Assembly (NCBI GenBank): GCA_016699045.1
Contig: CP064957.1
Coordinates: 537,784 to 601,783, forward strand
From: a bacterium
GTDB taxonomy: Bacteria > Babelota > Babeliae > Babelales > RVW-14
Length of the DNA: 64,000 nt
Direction of reading: 5' to 3'
Part shown: piece after piece, positions 2,880 through 56,844 of the stretch
Layout: every line of letters starts with the position of its first letter
Numbering within the stretch: position 1 is the first letter of the stretch
Made by a program: the position numbers and the translations under genes
The notes under the pieces: generated by a model
Told to the model about the DNA's origin: nothing
The model's input: only the letters and a program-made list of their open reading frames with translations
Databases searched by the model: none

Positions 2880-4603
2880 CCATGACAAAAAGAAGCATTA
2901 TTACCATCATACTTTTTTTAGGCATCATTCTATTTTTTGGTTTACCATTTACTTCATGGTGGTTCTTTGGCGCCGATGATTATGGTGGAGTTTTAATTGG
3001 TTATAAAGCAAGAACCTGGCACGATCTTTTAAATTTTTTTTATGATGGCCACATCAATAATTCCTTTGGTAACGGCCCAACTAATAGCGCCTGGCTTAAT
3101 GAACGCCCTCCATTTTTTGGTACCTACTACCGCCCACTTTATTGCGTTTTTTTAACGCTCCAGTACTGGCTCTTTGGCAGCTATGCCTACCCCTATTTTT
3201 TATGCAACGTTGTATTCCACGCTTTCAACACCGCCGTACTTTTCTTGATATTTTCACAACTTACCAACTTGTTTCCCGCAATGCTTGCTGCTCTGCTTTT
3301 TGCTGCTCACCCACAAATTGCTTACCGCTTTGGCGCTATTGTCAACTTTCATTACTACGTTAACACGGCACTCGTGTTACTCGCATTTCTAGCGTTTAAA
3401 AAATATCTTGATACGGAGCAAGAACGTTACTATGCTGGAGCCTGCACACTTTTTATGATAAGTCTTTTTACTCGCGAATCATCAATCGTCTTACCCAGCA
3501 TTGCTATGCTTGGCGTGTATGTTTATACCAACGATTATGCTCTGCTCACGATAAAAAACTTTTTTTCGCAATGGTGCACAGCACTACAAAAAACTGTGGG
3601 GTTGTGGCTTATAAGCCTTTCATTTTTAGCATTACGTTTGTTTTTATACCCGCTTGGCGCGCCAACAGCATTACAACAAAACTCACTTCTCTCTTTTTTA
3701 ATAAAAAAAATTCCTGAGTTTAAAGTTTTTATTTTTGACCTTTTTAATCTTTCATGGCTGCCGTGGGGCCACCCACTTATGCGCGGTACAATACTTTGCA
3801 CCTGTCTTACAATCTTCGCTTTATTTTTTTGGAACAACAACCGCAAGCTTTATGTTCTTATCAGCTTTGCTGCCGGCTTCTTGATGCTCTGGCCAGCATT
3901 AATGGGACCGTACAGTCCACGCTACTTTTATGAAGCACACCCTTTTTTTCTAGCAGGTTTTATTATGTGCTGCTCATTTTATACCGGCACATTGATACGC
4001 TTTAAAAAAATATTTCTGACTTTGCTAACGTGCCTCGTTATCTTTGAAATCGGTTTTGTTATGCACAGCTTTGCACGCCGCTCTACCAAGCACGGCCTCC
4101 TTGCACAAGCAACCTACGAACTTACTACAAACCCTGCGATTAAAAATCGTGCACTCTGTTTTATTGGCCATCCAACCGATGGCTTTGCCGACCAAAATGC
4201 CGCTATATTTTGGATTCTTTTAAACGACCTTTCTATACCCATTTTCTTTGATTCAGCAACGGCAATTACACAAGCAGATGCAAATATTGTACAACCAACA
4301 AAATGGGCCAATATTGTTAGCAATTATCATGATAAAAATTATTATACCACCATCCCAGTCCCTGGCGGCTTTCGCTTTACGTCGCTCAATCCGGCAAAAA
4401 TTCACTTCTTTACCGAAAACTGTAATTACTCGTTTGGGGAAAAAATTGTTCATGAAAAACAGATAGTGGACGGGCAACGTGTCGTCACTGACTTTACGCT
4501 ACTTATTAACAAAGAATATCTTAAACAAAATCCTCTCTTTGTCAGGTGGGATTTTGAAACTAAAAGTTTTATAATTGAGAAAAGCATGATTTCAAAAGAA
4601 TAG
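2876..4603 (+). CDS. GT-C fold integral-membrane glycosyltransferase, paralog of 1221-2879
   Basis: 575 aa. FGADDYGG (nt 2975-2980) sits at the same position as in the paralog. Shared motifs YRP(M/L), NP(T/A)I(H/K)NRALCF(V/I)G and QNPL(Y/F)xxWD(Y/F). Confidence 0.6.
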   Translation: MTMTKRSIITIILFLGIILFFGLPFTSWWFFGADDYGGVLIGYKARTWHDLLNFFYDGHINNSFGNGPTNSAWLNERPPFFGTYYRPLYCVFLTLQYWLFGSYAYPYFLCNVVFHAFNTAVLFLIFSQLTNLFPAMLAALLFAAHPQIAYRFGAIVNFHYYVNTALVLLAFLAFKKYLDTEQERYYAGACTLFMISLFTRESSIVLPSIAMLGVYVYTNDYALLTIKNFFSQWCTALQKTVGLWLISLSFLALRLFLYPLGAPTALQQNSLLSFLIKKIPEFKVFIFDLFNLSWLPWGHPLMRGTILCTCLTIFALFFWNNNRKLYVLISFAAGFLMLWPALMGPYSPRYFYEAHPFFLAGFIMCCSFYTGTLIRFKKIFLTLLTCLVIFEIGFVMHSFARRSTKHGLLAQATYELTTNPAIKNRALCFIGHPTDGFADQNAAIFWILLNDLSIPIFFDSATAITQADANIVQPTKWANIVSNYHDKNYYTTIPVPGGFRFTSLNPAKIHFFTENCNYSFGEKIVHEKQIVDGQRVVTDFTLLINKEYLKQNPLFVRWDFETKSFIIEKSMISKE

Positions 4604-4774: not shown

Positions 4775-5707
4775 TCACCTGTCGCGAAGCGTAAAAAAAG
4801 CACTAATTTTGCGCACACCAGCTTTGTATTTCCAGCCAACCTGCTCAAGAATTTTTGCAGAAAACGATTTGCCTTTAACAACCTGCGGATGAAGTGCTAC
4901 AACTTGTTCATGCAAAGTTTCAAATAGCTGACCGACATTGGTTACATCGACATAATCTTTGGCAATAATTTTGCCTAAATTATTTTGTTTTCGATCATAA
5001 TAAATCCCATCCCACTTGGCCAGATAGCGATTAAGATCGTCCTTCATTTTTTGATAATTGGTTTTGCGCACATCAACGTTAGCATGTGGATAATGCTCAA
5101 CATACGAATCTGGCGCATCAAGAATTTGATACCCAGCCTGCCACAATTTTAAACACAAATCACCATCGCCGTTATAAAAAAAGAACGTTTCTTCGTCAAT
5201 ATAATCAACTTCTTTGAGCGCTTGATTTAAAAACATGCCATGATTAACGTACAATTTTTCGCCAAGTGTACAACCAACGTGGTAGCTTGCTGACCGTGAC
5301 CACTCGCGCCAATAAAATGCCAGCGCACCAATTTTTTCGCCTCGCTCACGCAACTGATCAAAATAAGCAACGCCATTTTTTAACGCGCCAGGAATAAAAA
5401 TGCAGTCATCACTGATCATACAAACATACTGCCCTTGCGCAGCTTTGAACGCAAGATTCATAAAATAGCCCCATGTGCGTCGCTCAATTTCTTTGCCAAG
5501 CCACACTCCGCGATTGTGCTGCACGATGGTAATAACATCTTTTTGTTCGCACAGCCACGCGAGTGTGCCGTCAGTTGAGCCGCCATCAACGATAATAATT
5601 TCATGCGGCACATTTTCAACTTCAGCACGAATGCTGGCAAGCGTTAATTGTATAAATGCTAAACGGTTGTACGAACCGAGAACGACTGAAACTTTTGGGT
5701 TTTTCAT
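4775..5707 (-). CDS. GT2 family glycosyltransferase
   Basis: Start moved to MKNPKVSVVLGSYNRLAFIQ (ATG at 5705-5707), 5 nt after the upstream gene's stop. Motifs VVLGSYNR, IIIVDGGSTDGT, MISDDC. Confidence 0.8.
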   Translation of the reverse strand: MKNPKVSVVLGSYNRLAFIQLTLASIRAEVENVPHEIIIVDGGSTDGTLAWLCEQKDVITIVQHNRGVWLGKEIERRTWGYFMNLAFKAAQGQYVCMISDDCIFIPGALKNGVAYFDQLRERGEKIGALAFYWREWSRSASYHVGCTLGEKLYVNHGMFLNQALKEVDYIDEETFFFYNGDGDLCLKLWQAGYQILDAPDSYVEHYPHANVDVRKTNYQKMKDDLNRYLAKWDGIYYDRKQNNLGKIIAKDYVDVTNVGQLFETLHEQVVALHPQVVKGKSFSAKILEQVGWKYKAGVRKISAFFTLRDR

Positions 5708-5712
5708 AAAAT

Positions 5713-6888
5713 TTATCCGTGAATATAGCGCTGCGTGCTGCTCCAACAGCGACGAACTGGCGCAAATTCATCAAGAATTTTTATAATTTTTTGTACGTAA
5801 TCATCACACGTCCAACTATTCGCACGCGCTAAACCTTTGTTAATTAACTGCTGCCTCAGATCATAATCGTTTAATAGTGTTTGAATGTGCTGCGCTAACT
5901 GCTCTAAACTGCGCGGGTTAAAAAATAAAGCAGCATCGCCCAGCTGCTCACGCATGCCATCAACATCGGCAGCAATAACGGGGCAACCAAGCGCAAACGC
6001 TTCCAAGGGAGGAATATTGTTCGGGCCAAAAAATGACGCGAACGTTAACGCACAAGCGTTCCGATAGAGCGCCACCAACTCAGGAATTGAAACAAAACCA
6101 AGAAAATGAACTTGATCCTGCAAGCCGAGCGTTGCAACTATTTCTTGCACATATGCCAAATTTCCTTTGTCAGAACCGGTCAGCACCAGATCTACTAAGC
6201 TTCCCTGTTCCTTGAGCTGTTTGATGGCGTACAACAACGTTATATGGTTTTTGTGTGGCCAAAACTGCGCAGGATAAAAAACATACGGCCGTTTAAAATC
6301 ATATTTTTTGATAACATCAACCTGCTCAAGTGTCTTATCAAAAACAAAGTCTGGCGTCGGCAATTCAAGCGTTTCAACGCGCTGTTCAGACATGCCATAA
6401 AAACGCATAACCTCTCGTTTTGCCGTTTCATTACCCGCCAAAACGTACGCAGCTCGTGGAATGACATTGGCATAGTGCCGCTCGCGTTCTTCAAAAGTAC
6501 TGCCAGTCACACTGACTTCAGGAAAAAATGATTGGTGCCGGTGCTGCAAATCCCACACCGTGTACAAATACGGCACCTCAACAAATTGGTGTGCTGGTGT
6601 TACAAACCAAACCATGTCGATATTATTTTCAAGGACTGCACGATTTAATAAACTTTTATATTTTTTTTGAACCTCTCGAGTATCAAAATAGCGCCAACAT
6701 TTGAGCGCAGCTTTTTTCAGTAACGAATCTTGCGGACTGCTCAATTTTTTTTGTAACGAATCTAAGATAACAAATTCATGCGTACTGTGGCTGCGTTTAA
6801 TTGCTTGCAGCAAAGAATACTGAAAGGTGTAGCCCCCACCAGATTTTGGATCTGATAACACCCCGCCAAAATAAACACCAATTTTCAT
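5713..6888 (-). CDS. GT4-type (GT-B, Glycos_transf_1) glycosyltransferase
   Basis: 391 aa. C-terminal domain has FGPNNIPPLEAFALGCPVIAADVDGMREQLGDAALFFNP, an E-x7-E type region. Confidence 0.8.
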   Translation of the reverse strand: MKIGVYFGGVLSDPKSGGGYTFQYSLLQAIKRSHSTHEFVILDSLQKKLSSPQDSLLKKAALKCWRYFDTREVQKKYKSLLNRAVLENNIDMVWFVTPAHQFVEVPYLYTVWDLQHRHQSFFPEVSVTGSTFEERERHYANVIPRAAYVLAGNETAKREVMRFYGMSEQRVETLELPTPDFVFDKTLEQVDVIKKYDFKRPYVFYPAQFWPHKNHITLLYAIKQLKEQGSLVDLVLTGSDKGNLAYVQEIVATLGLQDQVHFLGFVSIPELVALYRNACALTFASFFGPNNIPPLEAFALGCPVIAADVDGMREQLGDAALFFNPRSLEQLAQHIQTLLNDYDLRQQLINKGLARANSWTCDDYVQKIIKILDEFAPVRRCWSSTQRYIHG

Positions 6889-6902
6889 AGCTTCACCATG
6901 CT

Positions 6903-7670
6903 TTATTTTTTACGCCCAACCGCACACACGCCCCACGACCTACTGACCTGCTGCTTGCCCGTCAACCATTCTTCAAAGGCCACCAGCTCAAAACCATGCT
7001 GCTCAAACAACGCCTCAACTTCTGGTTTAAACAAATAACGCATGCAATGATTTTCATGCAATTCAGTCGTCGCATCCTGTTTTTTGTCATGAACAAAAAT
7101 CGTAAATTTAACATTAACGCAATTGTTTGCTTCCTGACTTTCAGGCTCGGCAACACGCGTTACTTTTACGGCATCAGTTTCTATACGCTTAACGCGTACG
7201 TCTGAGCCAATCGTTAACACCGCCGGCCCATACCAAAAATCAAATACAAATAAACCGCCGGCATTCACATGCACGGCCGCCGTTTGAAATGCTGCTTGCA
7301 AATCAGCATTAGTTGTTTGATAGCTCATGACATGAAATAATGAGGCAACCACATCAAATTTTTTTGCTAACCGTACAGTGCGTAAATCACCAACAGAAAA
7401 AGACAGCCGGCTTGCATTTTCAGAATTTTCAGCGCGCAACGCCTCTGCTTGCGTAAGCATCTGCTCACTCAAGTCAATGCCATGGACGCCATATCCCTTA
7501 CGTGCTAGCGCCAACGCATGCCGGCCGGTTCCACACCCTAACTCAAAAATTGAGCGCGCCTGCGGGGCAAATTTTTTGATCAACGCATCAAGATAGTTAG
7601 TTTCGGCATCATAATTTTTATCGTGATACAACGCATCGTAATACTGGGCGTAAGCGCCAAAAACTGTCAT
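6903..7670 (-). CDS. class I SAM-dependent methyltransferase
   Basis: Start at MTVFGAYAQYYD (ATG 7668-7670) forms an ATGA overlap with the stop of the upstream aminotransferase. Motif I is IFELGCGTGRHALALARKG. Confidence 0.8.
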   Translation of the reverse strand: MTVFGAYAQYYDALYHDKNYDAETNYLDALIKKFAPQARSIFELGCGTGRHALALARKGYGVHGIDLSEQMLTQAEALRAENSENASRLSFSVGDLRTVRLAKKFDVVASLFHVMSYQTTNADLQAAFQTAAVHVNAGGLFVFDFWYGPAVLTIGSDVRVKRIETDAVKVTRVAEPESQEANNCVNVKFTIFVHDKKQDATTELHENHCMRYLFKPEVEALFEQHGFELVAFEEWLTGKQQVSRSWGVCAVGRKK

Positions 7671-8803
7671 GAAAAAATCTCCTTGATCGCGCAAACCACA
7701 CGATCCATCTGCTCTTGCGTCAACGCAAGACCGCTGGGAATATAAAAACCTCTGCGCGCCAAGCGTTCAGCCACAGGACATGATTGCATCACTTCTCTAT
7801 TTTGGTTAAACACCGGCTGCTCATGTAAACCCCAAAAAAATGGGCGCGTTCCAATACCGCGCTCCGCAAGAAGTCGCATCATTTCCATCGCATCAAATGG
7901 CACACTATCTTTGAGTACCATACCAAAAACCCAGTAAATGTTAGTGGCATACGCCGTCATTTCAAGCGGTAACTCCAGATAGCCAATGCGGCGCAAATGC
8001 GTGGTGTAAAATTGTCCAATCAATCTTTTTTTCTTAATAAAAAGATCAAGCTGCTCAAGCTGTGCCAAGCCGACGGCCGCTTGCAAGTTAGTCATACGAA
8101 AATTATAACCAAGTTCATCATGCACAAAACGACGCTCTGCTTTAAAACACAAATTACGTAATGAACGTGCACGCTCAGCCAAATGCTCGTCATTTGTCAT
8201 AACCATGCCACCCTCGCCTGTTGTCACATGCTTATTGGGATAAAAACTCACGATACTGATATCGCCCAAACTACCACACGGCTGACCGCGATACGTTTGG
8301 CCAATCGCCTGGGCAGCATCTTCAATAATTTTTAAATTATATTTTTTTGCCAATTCAATCACCGGATCCATGTCGGTAGGCAGGCCATAAATATGCACGA
8401 CCATAATTGCTTTGGTCCGTGGTGTAATTTTTTTTTCAAGATCAGTAACATCCATGTTCCACGTCTTGGCATCAGCGTCAACAAACACGGGCTCACAATC
8501 AGCGCGCACTATGGCAATAGCACAAGAAATAATGGTGAAGGTGGGCACAATAATCTGACTACCAGGCTCAAGGTCAAGTGCACGCACCGCCACTTCAAGC
8601 GCAGCTGTGCCATTCATAACGGCAATACCGTACTCACAACCCATGCGGGCTGAAAAAAGTTCTTCAAATTTTTTAACAAAAGGACCGTCGGAAGAAATCC
8701 AACCGGTATCGATACATTCATTTAAATATTTTTTTTCATTCCCATTCAACAACGGTTCATTGACGGGAATAAACACATGTTTTGCGTCTTGAGTTTGTAT
8801 CAT
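7667..8803 (-). CDS. DegT/DnrJ/EryC1/StrS-family PLP-dependent sugar aminotransferase
   Basis: 378 aa. DTGWISSDGPFVKKFEE. PLP-lysine context VSFYPNKHVTTGEGG. Confidence 0.85.
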   Translation of the reverse strand: MIQTQDAKHVFIPVNEPLLNGNEKKYLNECIDTGWISSDGPFVKKFEELFSARMGCEYGIAVMNGTAALEVAVRALDLEPGSQIIVPTFTIISCAIAIVRADCEPVFVDADAKTWNMDVTDLEKKITPRTKAIMVVHIYGLPTDMDPVIELAKKYNLKIIEDAAQAIGQTYRGQPCGSLGDISIVSFYPNKHVTTGEGGMVMTNDEHLAERARSLRNLCFKAERRFVHDELGYNFRMTNLQAAVGLAQLEQLDLFIKKKRLIGQFYTTHLRRIGYLELPLEMTAYATNIYWVFGMVLKDSVPFDAMEMMRLLAERGIGTRPFFWGLHEQPVFNQNREVMQSCPVAERLARRGFYIPSGLALTQEQMDRVVCAIKEIFS

Positions 8804-46638: not shown

Positions 46639-47722
46639 ATGGAAGATTTTTGCACAAGATTATCCAGACGTTTCGCTCGCTGTGGTTTTCCCGCGCGAAT
46701 GGCCGGGTTCGTTATATCATCATCAGGTAGAAAATTTAGAAAAAGAACAATTAAAGAACTGTACCTTTATTGGCCTTAAAGCATTTGGCGTTGGCAATGA
46801 AGTCCGCTATGGATACTATCCGCGCGGCTTGATAAAGGTCATGAAAAACTTTAAGCCAGACATTATTCACGTTGAACAAGGTGATAATGCCTTGAGTCTT
46901 TTTCAAAGTATTTTGTTTGCAAAAATATTTTGCCGTCAGGCAAAACTTTCATTTTTTACGTGGGTCAACTGGCATCATAAATTTTCACTCAAATATCGCC
47001 TCTTCTGGGGTTTAATTGAAAAATTTAATCGTACTTTCACCAGCGGCGCCATTGTCGGCAATCATGATGCACAAAAAATATTAACTGAAAAAGGTTTTAC
47101 AAAAAAAACAACGGTGTGCCCACAACTGGGTATTAATCTTAAAACCTTTAAGCCAGCACATATCGAACACCACCCTCATCGCTATATCGGTTACATTGGC
47201 AGATTGGTTGAAGAAAAAGGGGTCATGCTACTTGCACACGCTTTTCATTCCCTCCACACCCTATTTCCCGATTGGCGGTTAATTTTTATTGGTTCTGGTC
47301 CATTTGAAAAACAACTGATCGATTACGTAGTCACTCATAAACTTATTGATGTAGTTGAATTTCGTGACCCCATCTCACATGACAAAGTTGCCAATGCCTT
47401 ATCGTTTATTGATATCTTAGTTCTCCCATCGTACGACACACCGCATTGGAAAGAACAATTTGGTCACATTTTAATTGAAGCAATGGCATGTAAAGTGCCA
47501 GTGATCGCAAGCAACGCGGGAGAAATTCCCAACGTTGTTGCGCAGGCGGGATTAGTCTTTGAACAAAACAATGAAAAATCACTTACTAGTTATTTACACA
47601 TGCTTATGACCAATGCATCACTGCGCAACCAACTCGGAGAAAAAGGATATCAGCGAGTAAAAAATCATTATTCGCATCAAGCAATTGCCAAAGTAACATA
47701 TGACTTTTGGCAATCTCTTTAA
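46586..47722 (+). CDS. GT4-type glycosyltransferase
   Basis: 378 aa. MKILVISHTY. PSYDTPHWKEQFGHILIEAMACKVPVIASNAGEIPNVV. Confidence 0.8.
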   Translation: MKILVISHTYVTQINRDKWKIFAQDYPDVSLAVVFPREWPGSLYHHQVENLEKEQLKNCTFIGLKAFGVGNEVRYGYYPRGLIKVMKNFKPDIIHVEQGDNALSLFQSILFAKIFCRQAKLSFFTWVNWHHKFSLKYRLFWGLIEKFNRTFTSGAIVGNHDAQKILTEKGFTKKTTVCPQLGINLKTFKPAHIEHHPHRYIGYIGRLVEEKGVMLLAHAFHSLHTLFPDWRLIFIGSGPFEKQLIDYVVTHKLIDVVEFRDPISHDKVANALSFIDILVLPSYDTPHWKEQFGHILIEAMACKVPVIASNAGEIPNVVAQAGLVFEQNNEKSLTSYLHMLMTNASLRNQLGEKGYQRVKNHYSHQAIAKVTYDFWQSL

Positions 47723-47737
47723 AAAAGGAGAAAGATC

Positions 47738-49141
47738 GTGGATATTATTGTTATTGGGGCCGGCTATGTTGGCCTTGTAACGGCGGCATGCCTTGCTCAA
47801 AAAGACAACAACGTTACCATTGTTGAAAATAATCCTGCAAAAATTACCGCTCTTTTGCAAGGCGTTATTCCATTTTATGAACCGGGCCTTGATAAACTGG
47901 TTGCCGAAGGTATTACAAAAAAAAATATTACCTTTGTTGCCAACGTTGCACAAGCACTGCAAGCTACCAAACCAGACGTTATTTTTTCATGCGTCGGCAC
48001 ACCATCGAGAGAAGACGGCTCAGCAGATTTGTCGTTTGTTTGGCAAGTCGCTCAAGAAATTGGACAACATATCAACAACTACACGCTCGTTGTAAATAAA
48101 TCAACCGTCCCGGTTGGCACGGCAGAAAATGTTAAAGCAATTATTCAAGAGCAGTTACGTCTTCGTTCAGTAACCGTACCATTTGACGTTGCCTCAAACC
48201 CAGAATTTTTAAAAGAAGGCGATGCGCTCAGTGATTTTATGCAACCAGACCGCGTCGTGATTGGCGTTGACTCAGAACAGGCAACCACCCTGCTCACGCA
48301 ATTGTATGCACCTTTTTTAACAAACATTGAACAACAGTTGGTTTGCATGGACATCCCTTCAGCAGAACTCACTAAATATGCTTCAAACGCTATGCTGGCA
48401 ACTCGTATCAGTTTCATGAACCAACTTGCTCATTTGGCAGACGTAGTCGGCGCGGATATTGAAGACGTCAAAAAAGGAATGGCTCTTGACCAACGCATTG
48501 GCAAACATTTCCTAAATGCCGGTATCGGCTACGGCGGCAGCTGCTTTCCCAAAGACGTCAAAGCACTCATTCATACCGGCAAAGAACATCATGTTTCTAT
48601 GTCATTGATTCAGGAAGTTGATGCTGTCAACACGCAACAACGACAATTATTTTTAAATAAAATTCTCGACTCTTATGGCAACACACTCCTCAACAAACGG
48701 ATCGGAATTTGGGGCCTTGCTTTCAAACCCGAAACCGACGACATCCGTTGTGCTCCCGCCATTGACATTATTACCAACCTTCTCGCGCACGGCGCCCACA
48801 TCATTGCGTACGACCCAGTAGCTAGCAGCAACATGCAACAGCTTTTCAAAAATACTGTCACATTTGCCTCAACAGCAGATGAAGTAGTCAACGCGGCAGA
48901 CTTTTTAATTATTCTGACCGAATGGCATGAATTTAAAACATACCCAACGGCACATTTTGCAAAGCTCAACGATCAGGTTATTTTTGATGGCCGCAACTGC
49001 TTTGACCCTGTTCTCATGCAAGAACAAGGTTTATGCTACATTACCATCGGACGTAACGTACACCAGCAAGAAACGAAAAAGAAATTGGTCTCGCTCAAAA
49101 AACAAAACCGAACGAGTCAACCAACATGTCCAACGATATAA
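47738..49141 (+). CDS. ugd: UDP-glucose 6-dehydrogenase
   Basis: 467 aa with GTG start. DIIVIGAGYVGLVTAACLA, NPEFLKEG, GIGYGGSCFPKD (catalytic Cys), GLAFKPETDD. Confidence 0.9.
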   Translation: MDIIVIGAGYVGLVTAACLAQKDNNVTIVENNPAKITALLQGVIPFYEPGLDKLVAEGITKKNITFVANVAQALQATKPDVIFSCVGTPSREDGSADLSFVWQVAQEIGQHINNYTLVVNKSTVPVGTAENVKAIIQEQLRLRSVTVPFDVASNPEFLKEGDALSDFMQPDRVVIGVDSEQATTLLTQLYAPFLTNIEQQLVCMDIPSAELTKYASNAMLATRISFMNQLAHLADVVGADIEDVKKGMALDQRIGKHFLNAGIGYGGSCFPKDVKALIHTGKEHHVSMSLIQEVDAVNTQQRQLFLNKILDSYGNTLLNKRIGIWGLAFKPETDDIRCAPAIDIITNLLAHGAHIIAYDPVASSNMQQLFKNTVTFASTADEVVNAADFLIILTEWHEFKTYPTAHFAKLNDQVIFDGRNCFDPVLMQEQGLCYITIGRNVHQQETKKKLVSLKKQNRTSQPTCPTI

Positions 49142-50346
49142 AAAAAAAGATTTTGTTTATACATCACGGCAAGGGACTGGGCGGCGCACCGCTCAGTCTG
49201 CTGTATTTAGTCAAAGGCATTGACCAAAATCTTTACCAAGCAGAAGTCCTTTTTCTGCACAACTCTGATGCCTTCAAGCTTTTTACCGAACAGGGCATTA
49301 CCTGCCATGGCCCGGTAAATCTTTACGACTTTGCTCATACAAAAATTTGGTGGTTTAAATGGTACCACCTCCCACACCTCACTCGAGCCTCTCTGGATAC
49401 TCTCAAAACAATCAACTCTGAAGCCCGCCAATGGCTGGAAAAAATTAAACCGGACCTTGTACACTTAAACACCAGCTCTCTTATCGCATGGGGCAAAATT
49501 GCTCACAAAATTGGCATACCAATAGTCTGGCACATCCGCGAACCACTCGCACCTGGCTACCTGGGGGCACGCAAGTCACTCATCACGCGCAGCATCGAAC
49601 GATATGCTGGCGCGATTGTTCCGATCTGCAAAAACGATGCCTTGCCCTGGCGTAACAATCCCAAAACACACGTTGTGTATAATGCCGTCAATGCAACAAT
49701 GTTTGATGCATCTATCAGCCCTCACGATTTTTTAGCACAGCACTATCTTGACTCAAGTATCCCCAAAATTTTATTTGTAGGCGGCCTTTCAGAAGAAAAA
49801 GGAACGCTATTATTGCTCAACATTTTTGAAAAAGTTTTGGAACTAGTACCTCACGCTCAACTTTTAATTGCCGGCTATTTTTACCATCAAAAGCACCACT
49901 CGCTCAATATTAAGCGCTTTATGCCTGCGGCCAAATTTAGGCAATCAGTCAACAATCAGCTTCAAAAAGTTAAAGAATCAGTTCACCTTTTGGGCCCCAT
50001 AAAAAATATTCCTGAAGCCATGGCCGCCGCCAATGTTCTTGTCTTTCCTGCCACCATTGGCCACTTTGCTCGGCCAATCATTGAAGCTGGTTTTATGAAA
50101 AAACCGGTTGTTGCCTCAGCCCTGGCGCCACTTGACGAACTAGTAATTCACGAAAAAACGGGGTATCTCATCGCACCCAAAAACCTTGACGAGTGGGCCG
50201 AAAAATTAAGCACCTTACTCTTGAATAAAAATTTACAAAATACGATGGGCCAAGCAGGTTTTGATTTTTGTTCACAAACCTTCAGCTTACCCAACCAAAT
50301 TACCAAGATTCAAACAATTTATTCTCAACTTTTAAAGGAAGAATAA
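49126..50346 (+). CDS. GT4-type glycosyltransferase
   Basis: 406 aa. KILFIHHGKGLGGAP. FARPIIEAGFMKKPVVASALAPLDELVIHEKTGYLIAP. Confidence 0.75.
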   Translation: MSNDIKKKILFIHHGKGLGGAPLSLLYLVKGIDQNLYQAEVLFLHNSDAFKLFTEQGITCHGPVNLYDFAHTKIWWFKWYHLPHLTRASLDTLKTINSEARQWLEKIKPDLVHLNTSSLIAWGKIAHKIGIPIVWHIREPLAPGYLGARKSLITRSIERYAGAIVPICKNDALPWRNNPKTHVVYNAVNATMFDASISPHDFLAQHYLDSSIPKILFVGGLSEEKGTLLLLNIFEKVLELVPHAQLLIAGYFYHQKHHSLNIKRFMPAAKFRQSVNNQLQKVKESVHLLGPIKNIPEAMAAANVLVFPATIGHFARPIIEAGFMKKPVVASALAPLDELVIHEKTGYLIAPKNLDEWAEKLSTLLLNKNLQNTMGQAGFDFCSQTFSLPNQITKIQTIYSQLLKEE

Positions 50347-51158
50347 TGTCCAAGCAGAACCTTGCCAAAGAATCGGTTGCGCGCTACTGGAACCAAGCAA
50401 GCTGCGGCACCGAGTTTATTCACGAAGCAAAACACTCTCGAGAATATTTTGAAGCAATCGAAGATTTTCGTTACACCATCGAACCAGAAATATTTGCTTT
50501 CGCGCAATTTACCCGATTCCATAACAAAAAAATTCTTGAGGTTGGGGTGGGTGCTGGCACTGATTTTTTGCAATGGGTTCGCGCAGGCGCCCAGGCTTAC
50601 GGCGTTGATTTAACACAAGAAGCCGTTACCAATGTTTTACATCGCTTGGCAATCTACAACCTTACCGCTTGTGACGTTCACGTTGCCGATGCTGAAAAAC
50701 TTAACTTTGACAACAACAGCTTCGACCTGGTGTACTCATGGGGCGTCATCCACCATTCACCAGACCCCGTCCAATGCCTGCGAGAAATTGTACGCGTAAC
50801 CAAACCGGGCGGAGCTATTAAAATTATGGTTTATAACCGGCGGTCACTTTTTGCTTGGTACCAGTACCTTCAATTCGGACTTTTGCTCGGCAAGCCCTTC
50901 ACCAGCATGAAAAAAATTTTAGCCCAGCACCAAGAAAGCCCAGGAACGCAGGCTTATACATTTAAAGAAATTAAAAAGATCCTCAAAGATTTTCCCGTTA
51001 TTATCAATAAACTGGAAGCAAATATTACCAGCCACGATTTGTTGTATTACAAAAAAAATCGCTTTATTAAAGCGTGTGCGTACCTTGTTGCAAGCTTAAC
51101 GGGCTGGACCCGACGCGGCTGGTTTATGACACTTGATCTTACAAAAAAAGAGGGTTAA
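50346..51158 (+). CDS. class I SAM-dependent methyltransferase
   Basis: Start moved to MSKQNLAKESVARYW (ATG 50346, TAATG overlap with the upstream stop, AAGGAAG RBS). Motif I ILEVGVGAGTDFLQW, then VTKPGGAIKIMVY. Confidence 0.8.
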   Translation: MSKQNLAKESVARYWNQASCGTEFIHEAKHSREYFEAIEDFRYTIEPEIFAFAQFTRFHNKKILEVGVGAGTDFLQWVRAGAQAYGVDLTQEAVTNVLHRLAIYNLTACDVHVADAEKLNFDNNSFDLVYSWGVIHHSPDPVQCLREIVRVTKPGGAIKIMVYNRRSLFAWYQYLQFGLLLGKPFTSMKKILAQHQESPGTQAYTFKEIKKILKDFPVIINKLEANITSHDLLYYKKNRFIKACAYLVASLTGWTRRGWFMTLDLTKKEG

Positions 51159-52003
51159 GGACGCTTTGATTTCTTAATCTTCAAAATCATGGTCTCAGCA
51201 TTTTTTTCGTTGTTATAACATTTTTCATAACGGTTCACCGCCCAGCCCAGACTGCTAAAAAAGCCATTAACAAGCGGCAAGAATGGCCAGGAAAGGGCTT
51301 GGTACAACCAGCGCACCATGCCCGGCACTTTTTTAGAATGCAGCAATTTGGCATCAAGCCGGGCAACTGGGTAGTAAAAACGATTATACATTTTTGCTTT
51401 AAGCTTATGGCACTCAAACCACCCCTCAACTATCTCCAGGCCATGCTGGGCAAGCAACGCTTTTACTTCCTGAAATGAGTAATGTTTATAGTGCCCATAC
51501 TGCTGCCGCACGTACCAACGGGGGCTTTTTTCAGCCGGTCCTTGAACTACAAAATTGGGCGTGGTTAAAAATATAACACCATCGTCAGCCAAAACCTTGG
51601 GCAAAGCACTTAAAAAAGCATCAACATCTTCCAAGGGAATATGTTCAAAAACCTCGGCCAGCAAGATAAAATCAAACGGCTTTTCTTGGACCAGAGCGGG
51701 CACTAAGTCTTGCAAAAAACCTTCCCGCAAAGAAACATTGGGACATGCTTGGCGCAGGCGGTCCCAGCTATGCTGATTCCCTTGAACTTCAATGGCAACG
51801 CCCTGCTTAAAAAATTCAGCCAGCAACCGAGTAAGCCTACCATCGCCCGCACCCACATCTAAAAACCGCCCCCGCTTGCTCTGAAAAACGACCTTTTCAA
51901 GCTGTTCTAACCAAAAGCCAACGGCATAGTCGGGTAGCCGATTGGAAAAGCCGGTATGGATTTGACCTTGCTTGTACAATGAAGTATAACGTTGATATAA
52001 CAT
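51155..52003 (-). CDS. class I SAM-dependent methyltransferase
   Basis: Start moved to MLYQRYTSLYKQG (ATG 52001-52003, after AAGGAG). Motif I FLDVGAGDGRLTRLLA, then LADDGVIFLTTPN. Confidence 0.75.
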   Translation of the reverse strand: MLYQRYTSLYKQGQIHTGFSNRLPDYAVGFWLEQLEKVVFQSKRGRFLDVGAGDGRLTRLLAEFFKQGVAIEVQGNQHSWDRLRQACPNVSLREGFLQDLVPALVQEKPFDFILLAEVFEHIPLEDVDAFLSALPKVLADDGVIFLTTPNFVVQGPAEKSPRWYVRQQYGHYKHYSFQEVKALLAQHGLEIVEGWFECHKLKAKMYNRFYYPVARLDAKLLHSKKVPGMVRWLYQALSWPFLPLVNGFFSSLGWAVNRYEKCYNNEKNAETMILKIKKSKRP

Positions 52004-52138
52004 AAATTTCTCCTTTTTTGGCCATTGTGCCGTTAGATGACTAACAGTTTTTTTCATGGTAAACTCAAGTCTAGATCGTATAAATACGCAAGTAAATACA
52101 CCTGTCATGTGATGACTAACCAAGGAGCTTTTAGAACA

Positions 52139-52645
52139 ATGGATGCAGAAGATATAAAAAACGAAGAATTCAACAACCACGACGAAGAAACGACATCACC
52201 AGTAGAAAAAAAACAGGTGACAGAAAATTTTTATGAACAGTTCATTAAACTAAGCGCCGACTTAGAAAATTATAAAAGACGCGTCACCAGAGAACGTGCT
52301 GAGTGGATGGATGTGTCGCAAGTGAATCTTTTGATTGAGCTGTTACCTATTTTTGACGAACTCGATCGCGCTCTTGTGATGGCCAACAACGCCCAAACCG
52401 ATGCAACCCACAATGCATGGCTTGATGGTTTTAAATTGATTCAAAAAAATTGGGAAAAAAAGCTTGAAGAAGTACACGTAAAAGTAATCGACACAAGCGG
52501 AATGTTTAACCCAGAAATGCACGAAGCATTAATGCAAGTTGAAGATCCAGAAAAACAATCGGGTCAAATCGCTCAAGTGTTTCACAAAGGCTATACCTTT
52601 AAAGACAAAGTAATTGTGCATGCAAAGGTAAGTGTCGCTAAATAA
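52139..52645 (+). CDS. grpE: nucleotide exchange factor GrpE
   Basis: Start placed at MDAEDIKNEE (ATG 52139, 11 nt after AAGGAG). FIKLSADLENYKRRVTRE, LLPIFDELDRAL, PEMHEALMQVE, GYTFKDKVIVHAKVSV. Confidence 0.85.
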   Translation: MDAEDIKNEEFNNHDEETTSPVEKKQVTENFYEQFIKLSADLENYKRRVTRERAEWMDVSQVNLLIELLPIFDELDRALVMANNAQTDATHNAWLDGFKLIQKNWEKKLEEVHVKVIDTSGMFNPEMHEALMQVEDPEKQSGQIAQVFHKGYTFKDKVIVHAKVSVAK

Positions 52646-53438: not shown

Positions 53439-55100
53439 ATGCAATCACGTATCAACTCGTTGCTTGCTTTACCTATCGTTATCAGCTTCATGTTGATTGG
53501 TGGGGGTATTTATTACCTTCATGATCGACACAAAAAGTTTGAACACTTAGAACAACTGCTCGGCCAATACACATCAGTAAAAGATTCTTTAGAAAAAGTT
53601 ATCACGCACAAAACTGCAGCACCAAGTACTGCTGTTGTTGCTGAGCAACAAGAAGTAACCATCCCGGCATCATGGATCGACATTCAAAAAAAAGTCAAAA
53701 ATACCGTTGTTCAAGTTTTCTCACAAATTAATGAATTCAACTGGCTTGAACCATACAAAACACCCCGCCAAGGCGAAGGCAGCGGCAGTGGCTTTTTTAT
53801 CAACGATCAAGGCCATTTAATAACTAATTATCACGTGGTCATGCAGTCAACCAACATTGAAATTCAAATTCCACTCTTTGGCATGGAACGCTTTGATGCA
53901 AAGTTAATTGGCGTAAGCCCAGAGCGTGATATTGCTTTACTAAAAGTAACGGATGAAGCACTCACCAAAATTAAACAAAAATTAGACCCAATTCCATTTT
54001 TAACTTTTGACAACTCTGATGCAGTTATCCGTTCGCAAGAAATTCTTGCCCTCGGCTATCCTCTGGCACAAGGCAGACTTAAAAGCACCTTGGGTATTGT
54101 CAGTGGTCGTGAGACACTTGGCTATTTTGGTTACATTCAAGTAACCACACCGCTCAACCCCGGCAACTCGGGCGGCCCTGCACTCAACAACGCGGGAAAA
54201 GTCGTGGGCATTAATTCTCGTGGCGTTATTGGCGCACAAAACGTTGGTTACATTATTCCCATCAACGAAGTTAAAAGTGCCTTGAATGACTTGTCTCGAG
54301 TACCGTTGCTGCGCAAGCCAACTCTCGGCTGTATTTTTACCTACGCAACACCAGAAATGGTTAACTACCTGGGCAACCCACCGCAAGGCGGCTGGTACAT
54401 TGCCAAAGTTTTTAATAACACACTTTTGAAAAAAGCCGGCCTGAAAAAAGACGATATGTTGTACAAAGTTAATGGCTACCCGATCGACATGTACGGCGAA
54501 CTTGATGTACCATGGAGCGAAGACAAAGTTTCTCTTTTCGAACTACTCAATCGCTACAAAATTGGTGATTCTTTAGCATTCTCAATTTACCGCAAGGGCA
54601 AACCATTAGATATCAGTTTCACGCTTGACGATAGTTATCTCCCACCCATTCGCACGATTTATTCTGAATTTGAACCAGAAGCAATCGATTATGAAATTGT
54701 TGGCGGCATGGTTGTTATGCCTCTTTCACTTAACCACGTGGGCATTATGATTCAAAGCGTGCCAAGCTTGGTAAAATACGGCCAGCCAGACAAGCAACAC
54801 ACGCCAGCCTTGGTAATCACTCACGTGTTGCCAAACTCACAAGCATCACGTGCTCGTGTTTTGCGCCCTGGCGAAATTATTGCTGCCGTCAACAACGAAA
54901 AAGTACAAACACTGGCCGACTTACGCAAAGCAATTTTACAAAGCAAAAATAAAGAATTTTTAACGATTAGAACCGACAATAATTTGTACGGCGTTTTATC
55001 GGTTGATCGCATCGTTAAAGATGAGCCAATGCTTTCTGCACAGTATTTTTATAAATCATCACCACTCATTGAACAATTACGAGAAGAGAAACGTGGCTAA
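53439..55100 (+). CDS. HtrA/DegP-family trypsin-like serine protease with PDZ domain(s), N-terminal membrane anchor
   Basis: 553 aa. Catalytic triad contexts ITNYHVV (His), RDIALLKV (Asp) and GNSGGPALN (Ser). PDZ-like C-terminal region. Confidence 0.85.
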   Translation: MQSRINSLLALPIVISFMLIGGGIYYLHDRHKKFEHLEQLLGQYTSVKDSLEKVITHKTAAPSTAVVAEQQEVTIPASWIDIQKKVKNTVVQVFSQINEFNWLEPYKTPRQGEGSGSGFFINDQGHLITNYHVVMQSTNIEIQIPLFGMERFDAKLIGVSPERDIALLKVTDEALTKIKQKLDPIPFLTFDNSDAVIRSQEILALGYPLAQGRLKSTLGIVSGRETLGYFGYIQVTTPLNPGNSGGPALNNAGKVVGINSRGVIGAQNVGYIIPINEVKSALNDLSRVPLLRKPTLGCIFTYATPEMVNYLGNPPQGGWYIAKVFNNTLLKKAGLKKDDMLYKVNGYPIDMYGELDVPWSEDKVSLFELLNRYKIGDSLAFSIYRKGKPLDISFTLDDSYLPPIRTIYSEFEPEAIDYEIVGGMVVMPLSLNHVGIMIQSVPSLVKYGQPDKQHTPALVITHVLPNSQASRARVLRPGEIIAAVNNEKVQTLADLRKAILQSKNKEFLTIRTDNNLYGVLSVDRIVKDEPMLSAQYFYKSSPLIEQLREEKRG

Positions 55101-55836
55101 AGAAAAAAAGCGCCTTGACGCACTAATTCTTGAACTTTACCCTCATTTGACGCGCAACCAAGTGCAGAGTTTTATTCTGCAAGGCAAAGTCAAAGTTAAC
55201 GATTTAGTCTGCACAAAACCGGGAACACCCGTCAGCCTCGATGCCGTTATTGGCATGGAGGCTGACCAACCAAAATATGCCAGCCGTGCCGGCTTTAAAC
55301 TTGAAGCAGCGCTCGAGCATTTTAAGGTCGATGTTACCAATCTAGTAGCTCTTGATGCCGGCATCTCAACCGGTGGTTTTACCGACTGCTTGTTACAGCA
55401 CGGCGCCAAGCGCATTTACGGCATTGACGTTGGTTACGGCCAGGTGCATGAAAAAATCCGCACTGACTCGCGCTTGATTTTGATGGAAAAAACGAACCTG
55501 CGCCATTTGGCCCCGCTGCCAGAATTGGTCGATTTGATAACACTCGATTTATCGTTTATCTCGATTTTAAAAGTCATGCCAGCGCTCGTAAATATTATCA
55601 AACCAACCGGCAAAATTATCACACTCATTAAGCCTCAATTTGAAGCTGAACGGGCAGATATTCAACGTGGCGGCGTTGTCAAAAGTGCCGCTGTTCATGA
55701 ACGCGTTATTGAAAAAATTAAACAGGGCATGCAGGAATTTGGGTTCAACATGATTGGCGTTATTGAATCGCCGATTGTTGGGGCTACATCTGGCAACAAA
55801 GAGTTTCTTGCGTTGTTTGAACATATCGAAAAGTAA
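55093..55836 (+). CDS. tlyA: TlyA-family rRNA (cytidine-2'-O)-methyltransferase
   Basis: GTG at 55093 overlaps the htrA-like stop by 8 nt. S4-like RLDALILELYPHLTRNQVQSFILQGKVKVN. FtsJ domain ALDAGISTGGFTDCLLQHGAKRIYGIDVGYGQ. Confidence 0.85.
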   Translation: MAKEKKRLDALILELYPHLTRNQVQSFILQGKVKVNDLVCTKPGTPVSLDAVIGMEADQPKYASRAGFKLEAALEHFKVDVTNLVALDAGISTGGFTDCLLQHGAKRIYGIDVGYGQVHEKIRTDSRLILMEKTNLRHLAPLPELVDLITLDLSFISILKVMPALVNIIKPTGKIITLIKPQFEAERADIQRGGVVKSAAVHERVIEKIKQGMQEFGFNMIGVIESPIVGATSGNKEFLALFEHIEK

Positions 55837-55844
55837 AAATAATT

Positions 55845-56822
55845 ATGAAGCTTTTTCCAAAAATCACACTTGCCATCTTTTTGGCAATAAGTTCGTTTTT
55901 AGTTATAAGTTTATTTAAGGTATATCCCCAGGAGCAACCAGCCATGGAATGGTCAGAATTTTCTTTTATACTCAAGCCCTCATCTTTAGGTGGCGTTGGT
56001 GTTTTTGCCATGCACGATATTCCTGCCGGCACACCCCTCTTTCGTACCGATCACCGTTCAAGAACTTTTAAAACAAAAGACCTCGATCCAGAATTTATTA
56101 AATACTGCGTCTTGGTCAACGATGAAGAATGCCGAGGCCCTGAGCGTTTTGACCGCTTAGAAATCAGCTGGTACCTCAACCACTCACACATGCCAAATAT
56201 TGCAAAATACGATAAACCAACCGACCGCGGCTGCTATGCCCTCAAAGATATTAAAGCTGGTGATGAAATCCTGATTGATTATAGCGGCCTCAATGAGCCC
56301 GAGCACTTGAAAGAAGATTATTATAAGCAATCGACTACCACCACATCAACATCGACACTCAATCCGCCAAATCAACAGGCACAAAAGAACGTTTCCAAAA
56401 CATGGTCAGAATTTTCTTTTATGCTCAAGCCGTCATCTTTGGGCGGCATTGGCGTTTTTGCCGTGCATGATATTCCAACAGGCACACAAGTTTTTCGCAA
56501 TGATCACATTATAAAAACTTGGAAAGTAAAAGATCTTTCTCTCGAGCTCAGACAATATTGCATCTACCTCAACGACGAAGAATGCCTAGGACCTGAGCGC
56601 TTTGATCGCATGGAAATAGGTTGGTATTTAAACCATTCAGACACCCCCAATATTGCAAAAAACCATGAAGAAATGTCTACGATCCATGACATTAGAGCAC
56701 GGACAGAGCGTGCATTTGTCACAACAAAAGACATCAAAGCTGGTGATGAAATTTTGATTGATTATAACTATCTTAATGAGCCAGAACACCTGAAAGAAGA
56801 TTATTATAAAAAATCTTCCTAA
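55845..56822 (+). CDS. tandem SET-domain protein with N-terminal signal/anchor
   Basis: 325 aa. Two ~130-aa copies each carry GxG (GGVGVFA / GGIGVFA), NHSxxPN (WYLNHSHMPN / WYLNHSDTPN) and GDEILIDY. They are joined by a Thr/Ser/Gln linker. Confidence 0.8.
   Translation: MKLFPKITLAIFLAISSFLVISLFKVYPQEQPAMEWSEFSFILKPSSLGGVGVFAMHDIPAGTPLFRTDHRSRTFKTKDLDPEFIKYCVLVNDEECRGPERFDRLEISWYLNHSHMPNIAKYDKPTDRGCYALKDIKAGDEILIDYSGLNEPEHLKEDYYKQSTTTTSTSTLNPPNQQAQKNVSKTWSEFSFMLKPSSLGGIGVFAVHDIPTGTQVFRNDHIIKTWKVKDLSLELRQYCIYLNDEECLGPERFDRMEIGWYLNHSDTPNIAKNHEEMSTIHDIRARTERAFVTTKDIKAGDEILIDYNYLNEPEHLKEDYYKKSS
55950..56819 (+). repeat. intragenic tandem duplication (SET unit 1: 55950-56333; unit 2: 56403-56819)
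   Basis: The first ~86 nt of the two units differ at about 12 positions by eye. Protein units align end to end: WSEFSF(I/M)LKPSSLGG ... LNEPEHLKEDYYK. Confidence 0.85.
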
Positions 56823-56844
56823 GCTTTTAAAAACTCGAGCCAAT

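Follow-up and report, generated by a model that had tools for sequence, protein, structure and literature searches.

Two tandem minimal SET domains behind a putative export segment in a protein of a Babeliales bacterium

The two-SET gene, its ortholog and the intactness of its units

We analysed a gene for a protein with two SET domains that lies in a 64,000-nucleotide stretch of a bacterial contig (CP064957.1), hereafter called the window, and that had been singled out in a preliminary description made from the letters alone. The encoded protein (P0001) is identical to NCBI QQR49716.1, annotated as 'SET domain-containing protein [bacterium]' on a 1.45-Mb contig of a metagenome-assembled genome (MAG), and it consists of a hydrophobic N-terminal segment followed by two SET units with a linker between them (Table 1). 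SET (PF00856) was the sole Pfam domain found in the protein, where it matched two stretches (E 1.2e-25, 90.4 bits). Each unit, searched in isolation, also scored above the PF00856 gathering score of 22.4 bits, so that the profile search suggested in the preliminary description supports its proposal of two SET units in one polypeptide. The motifs reported there were found at the same positions. Unit 1 (128 aa) has GxG at residues 50–52 (G50-V-G52), WYLNHSHMPN at 109–118 (NHSxxPN at 112–118) and GDEILIDY at 139–146, with Tyr146 as the catalytic-type tyrosine; unit 2 (139 aa) has GxG at 201–203 (G201-I-G203), WYLNHSDTPN at 260–269 (NHSxxPN at 263–269) and GDEILIDY at 300–307, with Tyr307 in the equivalent place. 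A conserved C-terminal flank of 17 aa, LNEPEHLKEDYY, is present in unit 1, and the loop at around residues 272–292 of unit 2 is 10 aa longer than its counterpart in unit 1. Both units consist of a bare SET core that lacks pre-SET and post-SET zinc clusters, as is characteristic of minimal enzymes resembling the viral protein vSET.

Table 1. Features of the two-SET gene and its immediate surroundings, in window coordinates (ORF, open reading frame)
Feature	Coordinates	Strand	Evidence
tlyA (rRNA 2'-O-methyltransferase), start codon uncertain	55003..55836	+	NCBIfam TIGR00478, E 1e-65
Two-SET-domain gene, complete	55845..56822	+	325 codons plus stop; ORF list, Pfam, exact database match
Putative N-terminal export segment, aa 1–23, MKLFPKITLAIFLAISSFLVISL	55845..55913	+	AlphaFold2 helix, hydropathy, conservation in P0002
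SET unit 1, aa 36–163	55950..56333	+	Pfam E 1.4e-11 (45.1 bits, isolated unit), conserved-column check, AlphaFold2 pLDDT ~90
Inter-unit linker, aa 164–186, TTTTSTSTLNPPNQQAQKNVSKT	56334..56402	+	Thr/Ser/Pro/Gln-rich, predicted disordered
SET unit 2, aa 187–325	56403..56819	+	Pfam E 2.8e-13 (50.6 bits, isolated unit), conserved-column check, AlphaFold2 pLDDT ~90 when unit 2 is covered by the alignment
Bidirectional intrinsic terminator, strong	56842..56882	both	RNA fold -28.7 kcal/mol, z = -7.9; terminator scan

The same two-unit ORF is present in a second sequence, P0002 (326 aa; locus L082, from the independent sample SRR30303872), which is 67–71% identical to the window protein. All cofactor and catalytic motifs of both units are conserved in P0002, the 22-aa linker is in frame and likewise opens with a run of Thr, and unit 1 retains the 10-aa loop that is missing from unit 1 of the window protein. 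The existence of this independent ortholog, with its similar, in-frame linker, rules out an assembly artefact or a mis-joining of two genes. At L082, too, tlyA lies directly upstream of the SET gene, with a gap of 14 nt, and 108 TlyA residues encoded on that contig are ~92% identical (by eye) to the window TlyA.

We next aligned 148 domains of the family and listed the 22 columns that are conserved at 80% or more. Unit 1 keeps all 22 of the 22 residues, and unit 2 differs at one weakly conserved Ala, which is replaced by Thr. The residues kept include G50/G52 and G201/G203, N112-H113-S114 and N263-H264-S265, P117-N118 and P268-N269, the glutamates E141/E302 and the tyrosines Y146/Y307. Hence, neither unit lacks cofactor-binding residues, the sign of decay that the preliminary description had named, and a decayed second copy is ruled out by this check. 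Six unit-specific substitutions are common to both orthologs, all of them fairly conservative, and this small number leaves the idea of subfunctionalised heads unsupported. As judged from these residues, both units are best read as catalytically competent SET domains and candidate lysine methyltransferases.

We modelled the protein with AlphaFold2 in two runs. The full-length model has a mean predicted local distance difference test score (pLDDT) of 76, with block means mostly of 78–95 in unit 1 and mostly of 68–87 in unit 2, and a predicted template-modelling score (pTM) of 0.48; it places a helix at residues 4–23, and residues 165–186 and the loop at 276–287 have pLDDT <50. A model made without the signal segment, from a different alignment, has a pTM of 0.50 and block-mean pLDDT of ~90 in unit 2 and ~80 in unit 1, with the linker (residues 130–151 of that construct) again at pLDDT <50. 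Foldseek searches with the models matched >270 SET structures in the PDB at E<=1e-3. The best match was Plasmodium falciparum PFL0690c (4rz0, E 3e-7), followed by vSET (3kma, E 5e-7, TMt 0.67), with the SET domains of MLL, Schizosaccharomyces pombe Set7, SET7/9, SETD8 and LegAS4 among the further matches; in a viral structure library, the best matches were SET proteins of CroV and chloroviruses. Query-normalised TM-scores were never >0.30, indicating that one unit was matched at a time.

vSET (A612L of PBCV-1) is a 119-aa dimeric viral H3K27 methyltransferase (PDB 1n3j, 3kma), which is said to 'walk' as a dimer and for which processive marking has reportedly been proposed. When we compared the family profile with the PDB, vSET was the best match (1n3j, E 8e-7), with NHSxxPN aligned to NHSKDPN and GxEIxIxY to GEEITISY. 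Together with its second place in the Foldseek search, this bears out the earlier comparison of the units with minimal viral SET proteins. Like vSET, the window units (~130 aa) are bare SET cores without a Cys-rich pre-SET or post-SET module, and the LGGxGVFA, NHSxxPN and GxEIxIxY motifs of the two align. By contrast, identity is only ~27%, the window protein is bacterial and carries a Sec-type N-terminus, vSET is without the conserved 17-aa C-terminal flank, and the two units of the window protein are naturally linked in a covalent chain.

Age and distribution of the tandem

Alignment of the two units with each other confirmed the head-to-tail duplication of a minimal SET domain that had been proposed (65% protein identity, BLASTP E 9e-67, a single 10-aa indel). 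The DNA identity of about 85% that had been estimated by eye holds locally, at the unit starts (90% across 60 nt and 83% across 90 nt), but overall identity is 75%. By the Nei-Gojobori method, the synonymous divergence (dS) of the two units is 1.13, which is saturated, the non-synonymous divergence (dN) is 0.19 and dN/dS is 0.17. We consider the duplication to be old, given a dS of ~1.1, the overall nucleotide identity of 75% and its origin before the P0002 lineage split off, and the suggestion of a relatively recent event has to be given up. Between the window protein and P0002, orthologous units have a dN/dS of 0.13–0.15. Both units are shown to be intact and to evolve under purifying selection.

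In two neighbour-joining trees, the backbone of which is weakly supported, the four units of the window protein and P0002 formed a clade (bootstrap 96.5% and 93%). Within this clade, the unit-1 sequences paired with each other (93.5% and 78%), as did the unit-2 sequences (81.5% and 69%), indicating a single duplication in the common ancestor of the window organism and the P0002 organism. The trees thus show the duplication, within the sampled sequences, to postdate the split of this lineage from all single-unit relatives, with both copies kept since. The gene had also been described as A/T-rich relative to its housekeeping neighbours, on the basis of 21 G or C among the 60 nucleotides at 56041–56100; this count is correct but not representative. 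The GC content of the gene (40.8%) is at the median of the window, which has 40.0% overall and a mean of 40.6 +/- 3.3% across 51 ORFs, ruling out a foreign A/T-rich island.

The locus is syntenic with that of L002, a MAG of a 'Candidatus Babeliales bacterium' (identities of 80% for pssA, 89% for HtrA, 87% for TlyA, 53% for LptG and 78% for GlmM), and we therefore assign the window organism to the Babeliales/Dependentiae. The Babeliales belong to Candidatus Babelota, also known as Dependentiae or TM6, whose members are obligate intracellular parasites that infect protists, and the window organism probably lives within protist cells. At the same site, L002 has a gene for a single 140-aa SET protein (6010..6432). 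A gain in the window lineage is favoured over a loss of unit 1 on the L002 side, since the SET protein of L002 is placed outside the clade of the four units, albeit in trees with a weakly supported backbone; a tblastn search found no unit remnant upstream of the L002 SET gene. Between tlyA and the single SET gene, L002 has an ORF of 112 aa (5654..5992, + strand) with no Pfam match, which takes the place of the segment coding for the putative signal peptide in the window and for which no homolog was found in the window or among the other loci examined.

The preliminary description had suggested that relatives be surveyed for single-copy and tandem forms. Scanning 185,579 species-representative genomes gave 80 loci, each with one detectable unit of the subfamily, from Babeliales, Chlamydiae, Legionellales/Coxiellaceae, other Proteobacteria, Verrucomicrobia and many Patescibacteria; at one of these loci, L076, the protein has a divergent first SET domain in addition. 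The homotypic tandem was found in none of these 80 loci, nor in 16 metagenome loci or 7 viral loci. The metagenome and viral loci are all single-unit, and the viral relatives show no more than 26–32% identity, which disfavours a viral origin of the gene. An exhaustive search of 1.84 billion representative proteins gave 554 clusters at E<=1e-3, nearly all of 105–180 aa and with one matched stretch. The window protein and P0002 each form a singleton cluster among ~15 billion proteins, and across every collection searched the homotypic tandem was found in these two sequences alone, the other family members being nearly all single-unit. The searches show the family, as delimited by sequence similarity, to be widespread as single proteins of 125–180 aa in intracellular or host-dependent bacteria, and stand-alone members, L002 included, measure 125–140 aa.

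The single-unit relatives come from Babeliales, Chlamydiae, Legionellales/Coxiellaceae, Verrucomicrobia, MAGs of Alpha- and Gammaproteobacteria, and Patescibacteria, and many have signal peptides. These relatives, for example the L002 SET and P0003–P0012, belong to the same subfamily, share 45–67% identity, the motifs and the C-terminal flank with the window units, and differ from the window protein and P0002 in having one unit each instead of two. Despite the synteny of the two loci, the L002 SET is just 66–67% identical to the window units, whereas it is 76–77% identical to SET proteins of Verrucomicrobia MAGs (L003, L004) and 70% identical to that of a Chlamydiae MAG (L007). The minimal SET family thus departs from the phylogeny of the organisms, although the tree has a weakly supported backbone, and this pattern suggests horizontal exchange among intracellular bacteria.

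Other proteins with two SET domains do exist: P0024, P0028, P0039, P0098 and a 267-aa protein of a Hyphomicrobiales MAG (L076, 5980..6783, + strand). Like the window protein, P0024, P0028, P0098 and the L076 protein have two Pfam SET domains in ~270–320 aa (267 aa in L076), and their second unit can be assigned to the broad subfamily of the window units. By contrast, their first unit comes from another SET subfamily. All five proteins are heterotypic, lack a signal sequence and are 24–28% identical to the window protein. On these features they are independent, older fusions and not duplications, which gives two-SET fusions at least two independent origins. The distance from the first catalytic Tyr to the second GxG in the other two-SET proteins ranges from ~37 to 81 residues (by eye) and follows no geometric rule. 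Full-text literature searches for proteins with two SET domains turned up eukaryotic multi-domain cases and non-covalent dimers but no bacterial tandem SET. The heterotypic architecture is apparently both independent and undescribed. Two further heterotypic proteins, similar to that of L076 (267–270 aa, without a signal sequence), are encoded at 4001..4813 of L083 and L084, and a GARS-like ATP-grasp gene lies divergently upstream of the heterotypic two-SET gene in all three loci (L076, L083 and L084).

Export, pairing of the units and alternative explanations

The N-terminus of the window protein reads MKLFPK and continues with an 18-residue hydrophobic stretch and then with acidic residues; its Kyte-Doolittle maximum over 12 residues is 2.74. 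Together with the helix in the AlphaFold2 model, this export-like profile agrees with the term 'secreted/anchored' used in the preliminary description. The MKLFxKITL start and the reading frame are conserved in P0002. The segment is a putative Sec signal peptide or, if uncleaved, a signal anchor, and, because Lys2 and Lys6 precede the hydrophobic helix and acidic residues follow it, an N-in/C-out topology is predicted. By a simple hydropathy rule, 52 of the 162 family representatives have a hydrophobic N-terminal extension, including all of the closest relatives (P0003–P0012). Several family members have textbook AxA cleavage sites, and the closest relatives have canonical signal peptides, such as MKKMFILCLLFLNFAPTIAA followed by ME in L093. 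An exported SET protein would most sensibly be directed at the host, because the periplasm would not supply an enzyme dependent on S-adenosylmethionine (SAM) with its cofactor. In C. destructans, an isolate of the Dependentiae, signal peptides are present on 44% of coding sequences and on 78% of ankyrin-repeat proteins, and the proteins that carry them have been interpreted as secreted host-modifying factors (PMC6561590). The TM6 core genome includes type II secretion components, two copies of gspD among them (PMC4776705).

Our favoured explanation, which we consider fairly probable, is that the gene encodes a Sec-exported, two-headed lysine methyltransferase, with two competent vSET-like SET domains on a flexible 23-aa linker, that is probably directed at the host. 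An ancestral single minimal SET gene underwent a lineage-specific tandem duplication before the window and P0002 lineages split. The protein would cross the inner membrane via Sec, might be released to the host through type II secretion components or vesicles, and could there use host SAM to methylate host lysines, histones being the obvious candidates. The two heads most likely act together. An intramolecular dimer is plausible by analogy and is the arrangement we favour, because vSET works only as a dimer according to a passage in PMC4150861 that cites Wei and Zhou 2010; simple two-headed avidity is nearly as likely. An engineered tandem construct, '2xvSET', has already been used (PMC4150861). 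In its most far-reaching form, the favoured explanation would make the protein a natural single-chain SET dimer, that is, a histone methyltransferase whose activity is independent of concentration, so that, once exported by Sec and type II secretion, it would stay active after dilution into the host and mark chromatin processively. We regard this form as unlikely; if it were true, a shared selective advantage would also lie behind the two-SET fusions that arose independently in other bacteria.

Methylation of host histones by secreted bacterial SET effectors is established (PMC3980110, PMC10117894). In function, the window protein would resemble the secreted SET nucleomodulins RomA/LegAS4, NUE, BtSET and BaSET (PMC3980110, PMC10117894), of which RomA methylates H3K14 of the host (PMC3980110). 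The preliminary description had drawn on RomA/LegAS4 and NUE for comparison, and this analogy stands as a functional likeness only. Legionella RomA/LegAS4 (PDB 5czy, 8sr6, 8swi) is likewise a SET enzyme from an intracellular bacterium of protists, and LegAS4 is both the best single-sequence PDB match (E 0.003) and the sole NCBIfam match of the window protein. However, the score against the LegAS4 model NF043024 is 37.8 bits, compared with a cut-off of 550, over positions 98–145 of the 439 in the model, and Pfam found no ankyrin domain in the window protein, ruling out membership of the LegAS4 family. RomA/LegAS4 has ankyrin repeats and one SET domain, whereas the window protein has two SET domains and no ankyrin repeats. 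The routes of delivery also differ: RomA/LegAS4 uses type IV (Dot/Icm) secretion and chlamydial NUE (CT737) uses type III secretion, for whose substrates the hydrophobic, Sec-type N-terminus of the window protein would not be typical. Literature searches found no SET-domain effector of Dependentiae, and the one review retrieved for the SET domain together with Dependentiae does not describe the window protein.

Several observations weigh against a host-directed enzyme with paired heads. Because the 18-aa hydrophobic core is long and a clear AxA site is missing, the protein could remain anchored in the inner membrane. The SET protein of L002 starts with MKWSEFSF, at a Met equivalent to Met34 of the window protein, and has no signal sequence. 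More broadly, 82 of the 162 family representatives are bare SET proteins without an N-terminal extension, many of them from Patescibacteria. The ancestral substrates were probably bacterial, given that L002 lacks a signal sequence and that roughly half of the family are bare cytoplasmic SET proteins. The six unit-specific substitutions shared by the window protein and P0002 give no sign of specialisation of the two heads. Finally, no confident inter-unit arrangement emerged from the two AlphaFold2 runs, with their low pTM and shallow alignments, although this negative packing result is weak, since the alignments were just 22–25 rows deep and spanned a single unit at any one time.

The packing result is nonetheless what would be expected if the units did not pack but acted as independent heads on a flexible tether, an alternative that we take seriously without considering it probable. 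The tandem would then gain avidity or act processively where substrates are multivalent, as in nucleosome arrays, or would just double the amount of enzyme that each exported molecule carries. Consistent with such independent heads, the linker is predicted to be disordered, pTM reaches just 0.48–0.50 even though both domains are well predicted, the two units are nearly equivalent in having only six unit-specific substitutions, and inter-unit spacing varies widely among the other two-SET proteins. By contrast, vSET, the closest solved relative, needs dimerisation, according to the passage in PMC4150861. Furthermore, the independent origins of two-SET fusions, at least two in number, suggest that the units work as pairs, and the shallow alignments, with a single unit covered each time, reduce the weight of the low pTM.

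The bare relatives in the family would also fit a cytoplasmic enzyme whose targets are proteins of the bacterium itself, such as nucleoid-associated proteins, with translation starting at Met34 or with an inward-facing membrane tether; we give this explanation little credence. The L002 syntenic ortholog, with its signal-less start, and the 82 representatives without an extension argue for it; we know of no eukaryotic host for the Patescibacteria that contribute many of them, and the archaeal Go1-SET reportedly acts on MC1-alpha. Chlamydial cpnSET methylates Hc1 (PMC3980110). However, the 33 codons upstream of Met34 are open, in frame and partly conserved in P0002 (MKLFxKITL) despite 6 codons of indel, and the first ATG lies 8 nt past the tlyA stop codon, with a similarly short gap at L082. 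The order of Lys2/Lys6, helix and acidic residues predicts an N-in/C-out orientation, not an inward-facing one, and all of the closest relatives (P0003–P0012) have signal-peptide-like N-termini. It is very improbable that one unit is a non-catalytic pseudo-enzyme for regulation or substrate docking while the other methylates, since, although such a division of labour is common after domain duplication and unit 1 of the window protein has lost the 10-aa loop that P0002 keeps, GxG, NHSxxPN, the Glu, the catalytic-type Tyr and the other strongly conserved columns are kept in both units, dN/dS between orthologs is ~0.13–0.15 for both, and the loop that was lost is variable and of low confidence throughout the family.

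To our knowledge, bacterial SET nucleomodulins have been described from a handful of pathogens, all with one SET domain and all delivered by type III or type IV secretion or by routes not known to us. Under the favoured explanation of an exported two-headed enzyme, the window protein would extend this theme to the Dependentiae, a phylum of obligate protist parasites. It also gives access to a large subfamily of uncharacterised minimal SET proteins that spans unrelated intracellular and host-dependent lineages and has many members that appear Sec-tagged. In addition, it provides a natural test of the dimer as the working unit of minimal SET proteins, since the two active sites can be mutated separately in one polypeptide. 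The two-SET architecture is rare but real, clearly beyond what chance would give, and is a modest elaboration of a familiar domain.

Neighbouring genes and other features of the window

The SET gene is preceded by pssA, htrA and tlyA, and followed by an unassigned gene, lptG and glmM. A promoter scan found no promoter-like site in the 8-nt gap between the tlyA stop codon and the SET start codon, and the strong terminator (Table 1) separates the SET gene from the next gene downstream, which is convergent with it. Because of this short gap and the terminator, the SET gene is probably the last cistron of an htrA-tlyA-SET transcript. An Rfam scan of the window gave no match.

Downstream of the SET gene, at 56908..58139 (- strand), two ORFs of 252 aa and 116 aa are the halves of one gene, which is intact in L002 as an ORF of 405 aa (6686..7903, - strand). 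The halves have no Pfam or NCBIfam match, and there is a signal-peptide-like N-terminus. The change of frame lies near 57795–57828, at a T6/A6 run, and reflects a frameshift in a pseudogene or else a sequencing error in the homopolymer.

Elsewhere in the window, an ORF of 261 aa (39788..40570, + strand) has sub-threshold matches to the models of the Legionella Dot/Icm effectors AnkY/LegA9, AnkG and AnkC, and probably encodes an ankyrin-repeat protein, a class typical of Dependentiae. Two ORFs resembling class I SAM-dependent methyltransferases occupy 50268..52180; they are convergent, abut at 51155–51158, and both score below the cut-offs of the characterised methyltransferase families that they match. 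A surface-polysaccharide cluster with GT4 glycosyltransferases and a UDP-glucose 6-dehydrogenase lies at 45370..50346 (+ strand).

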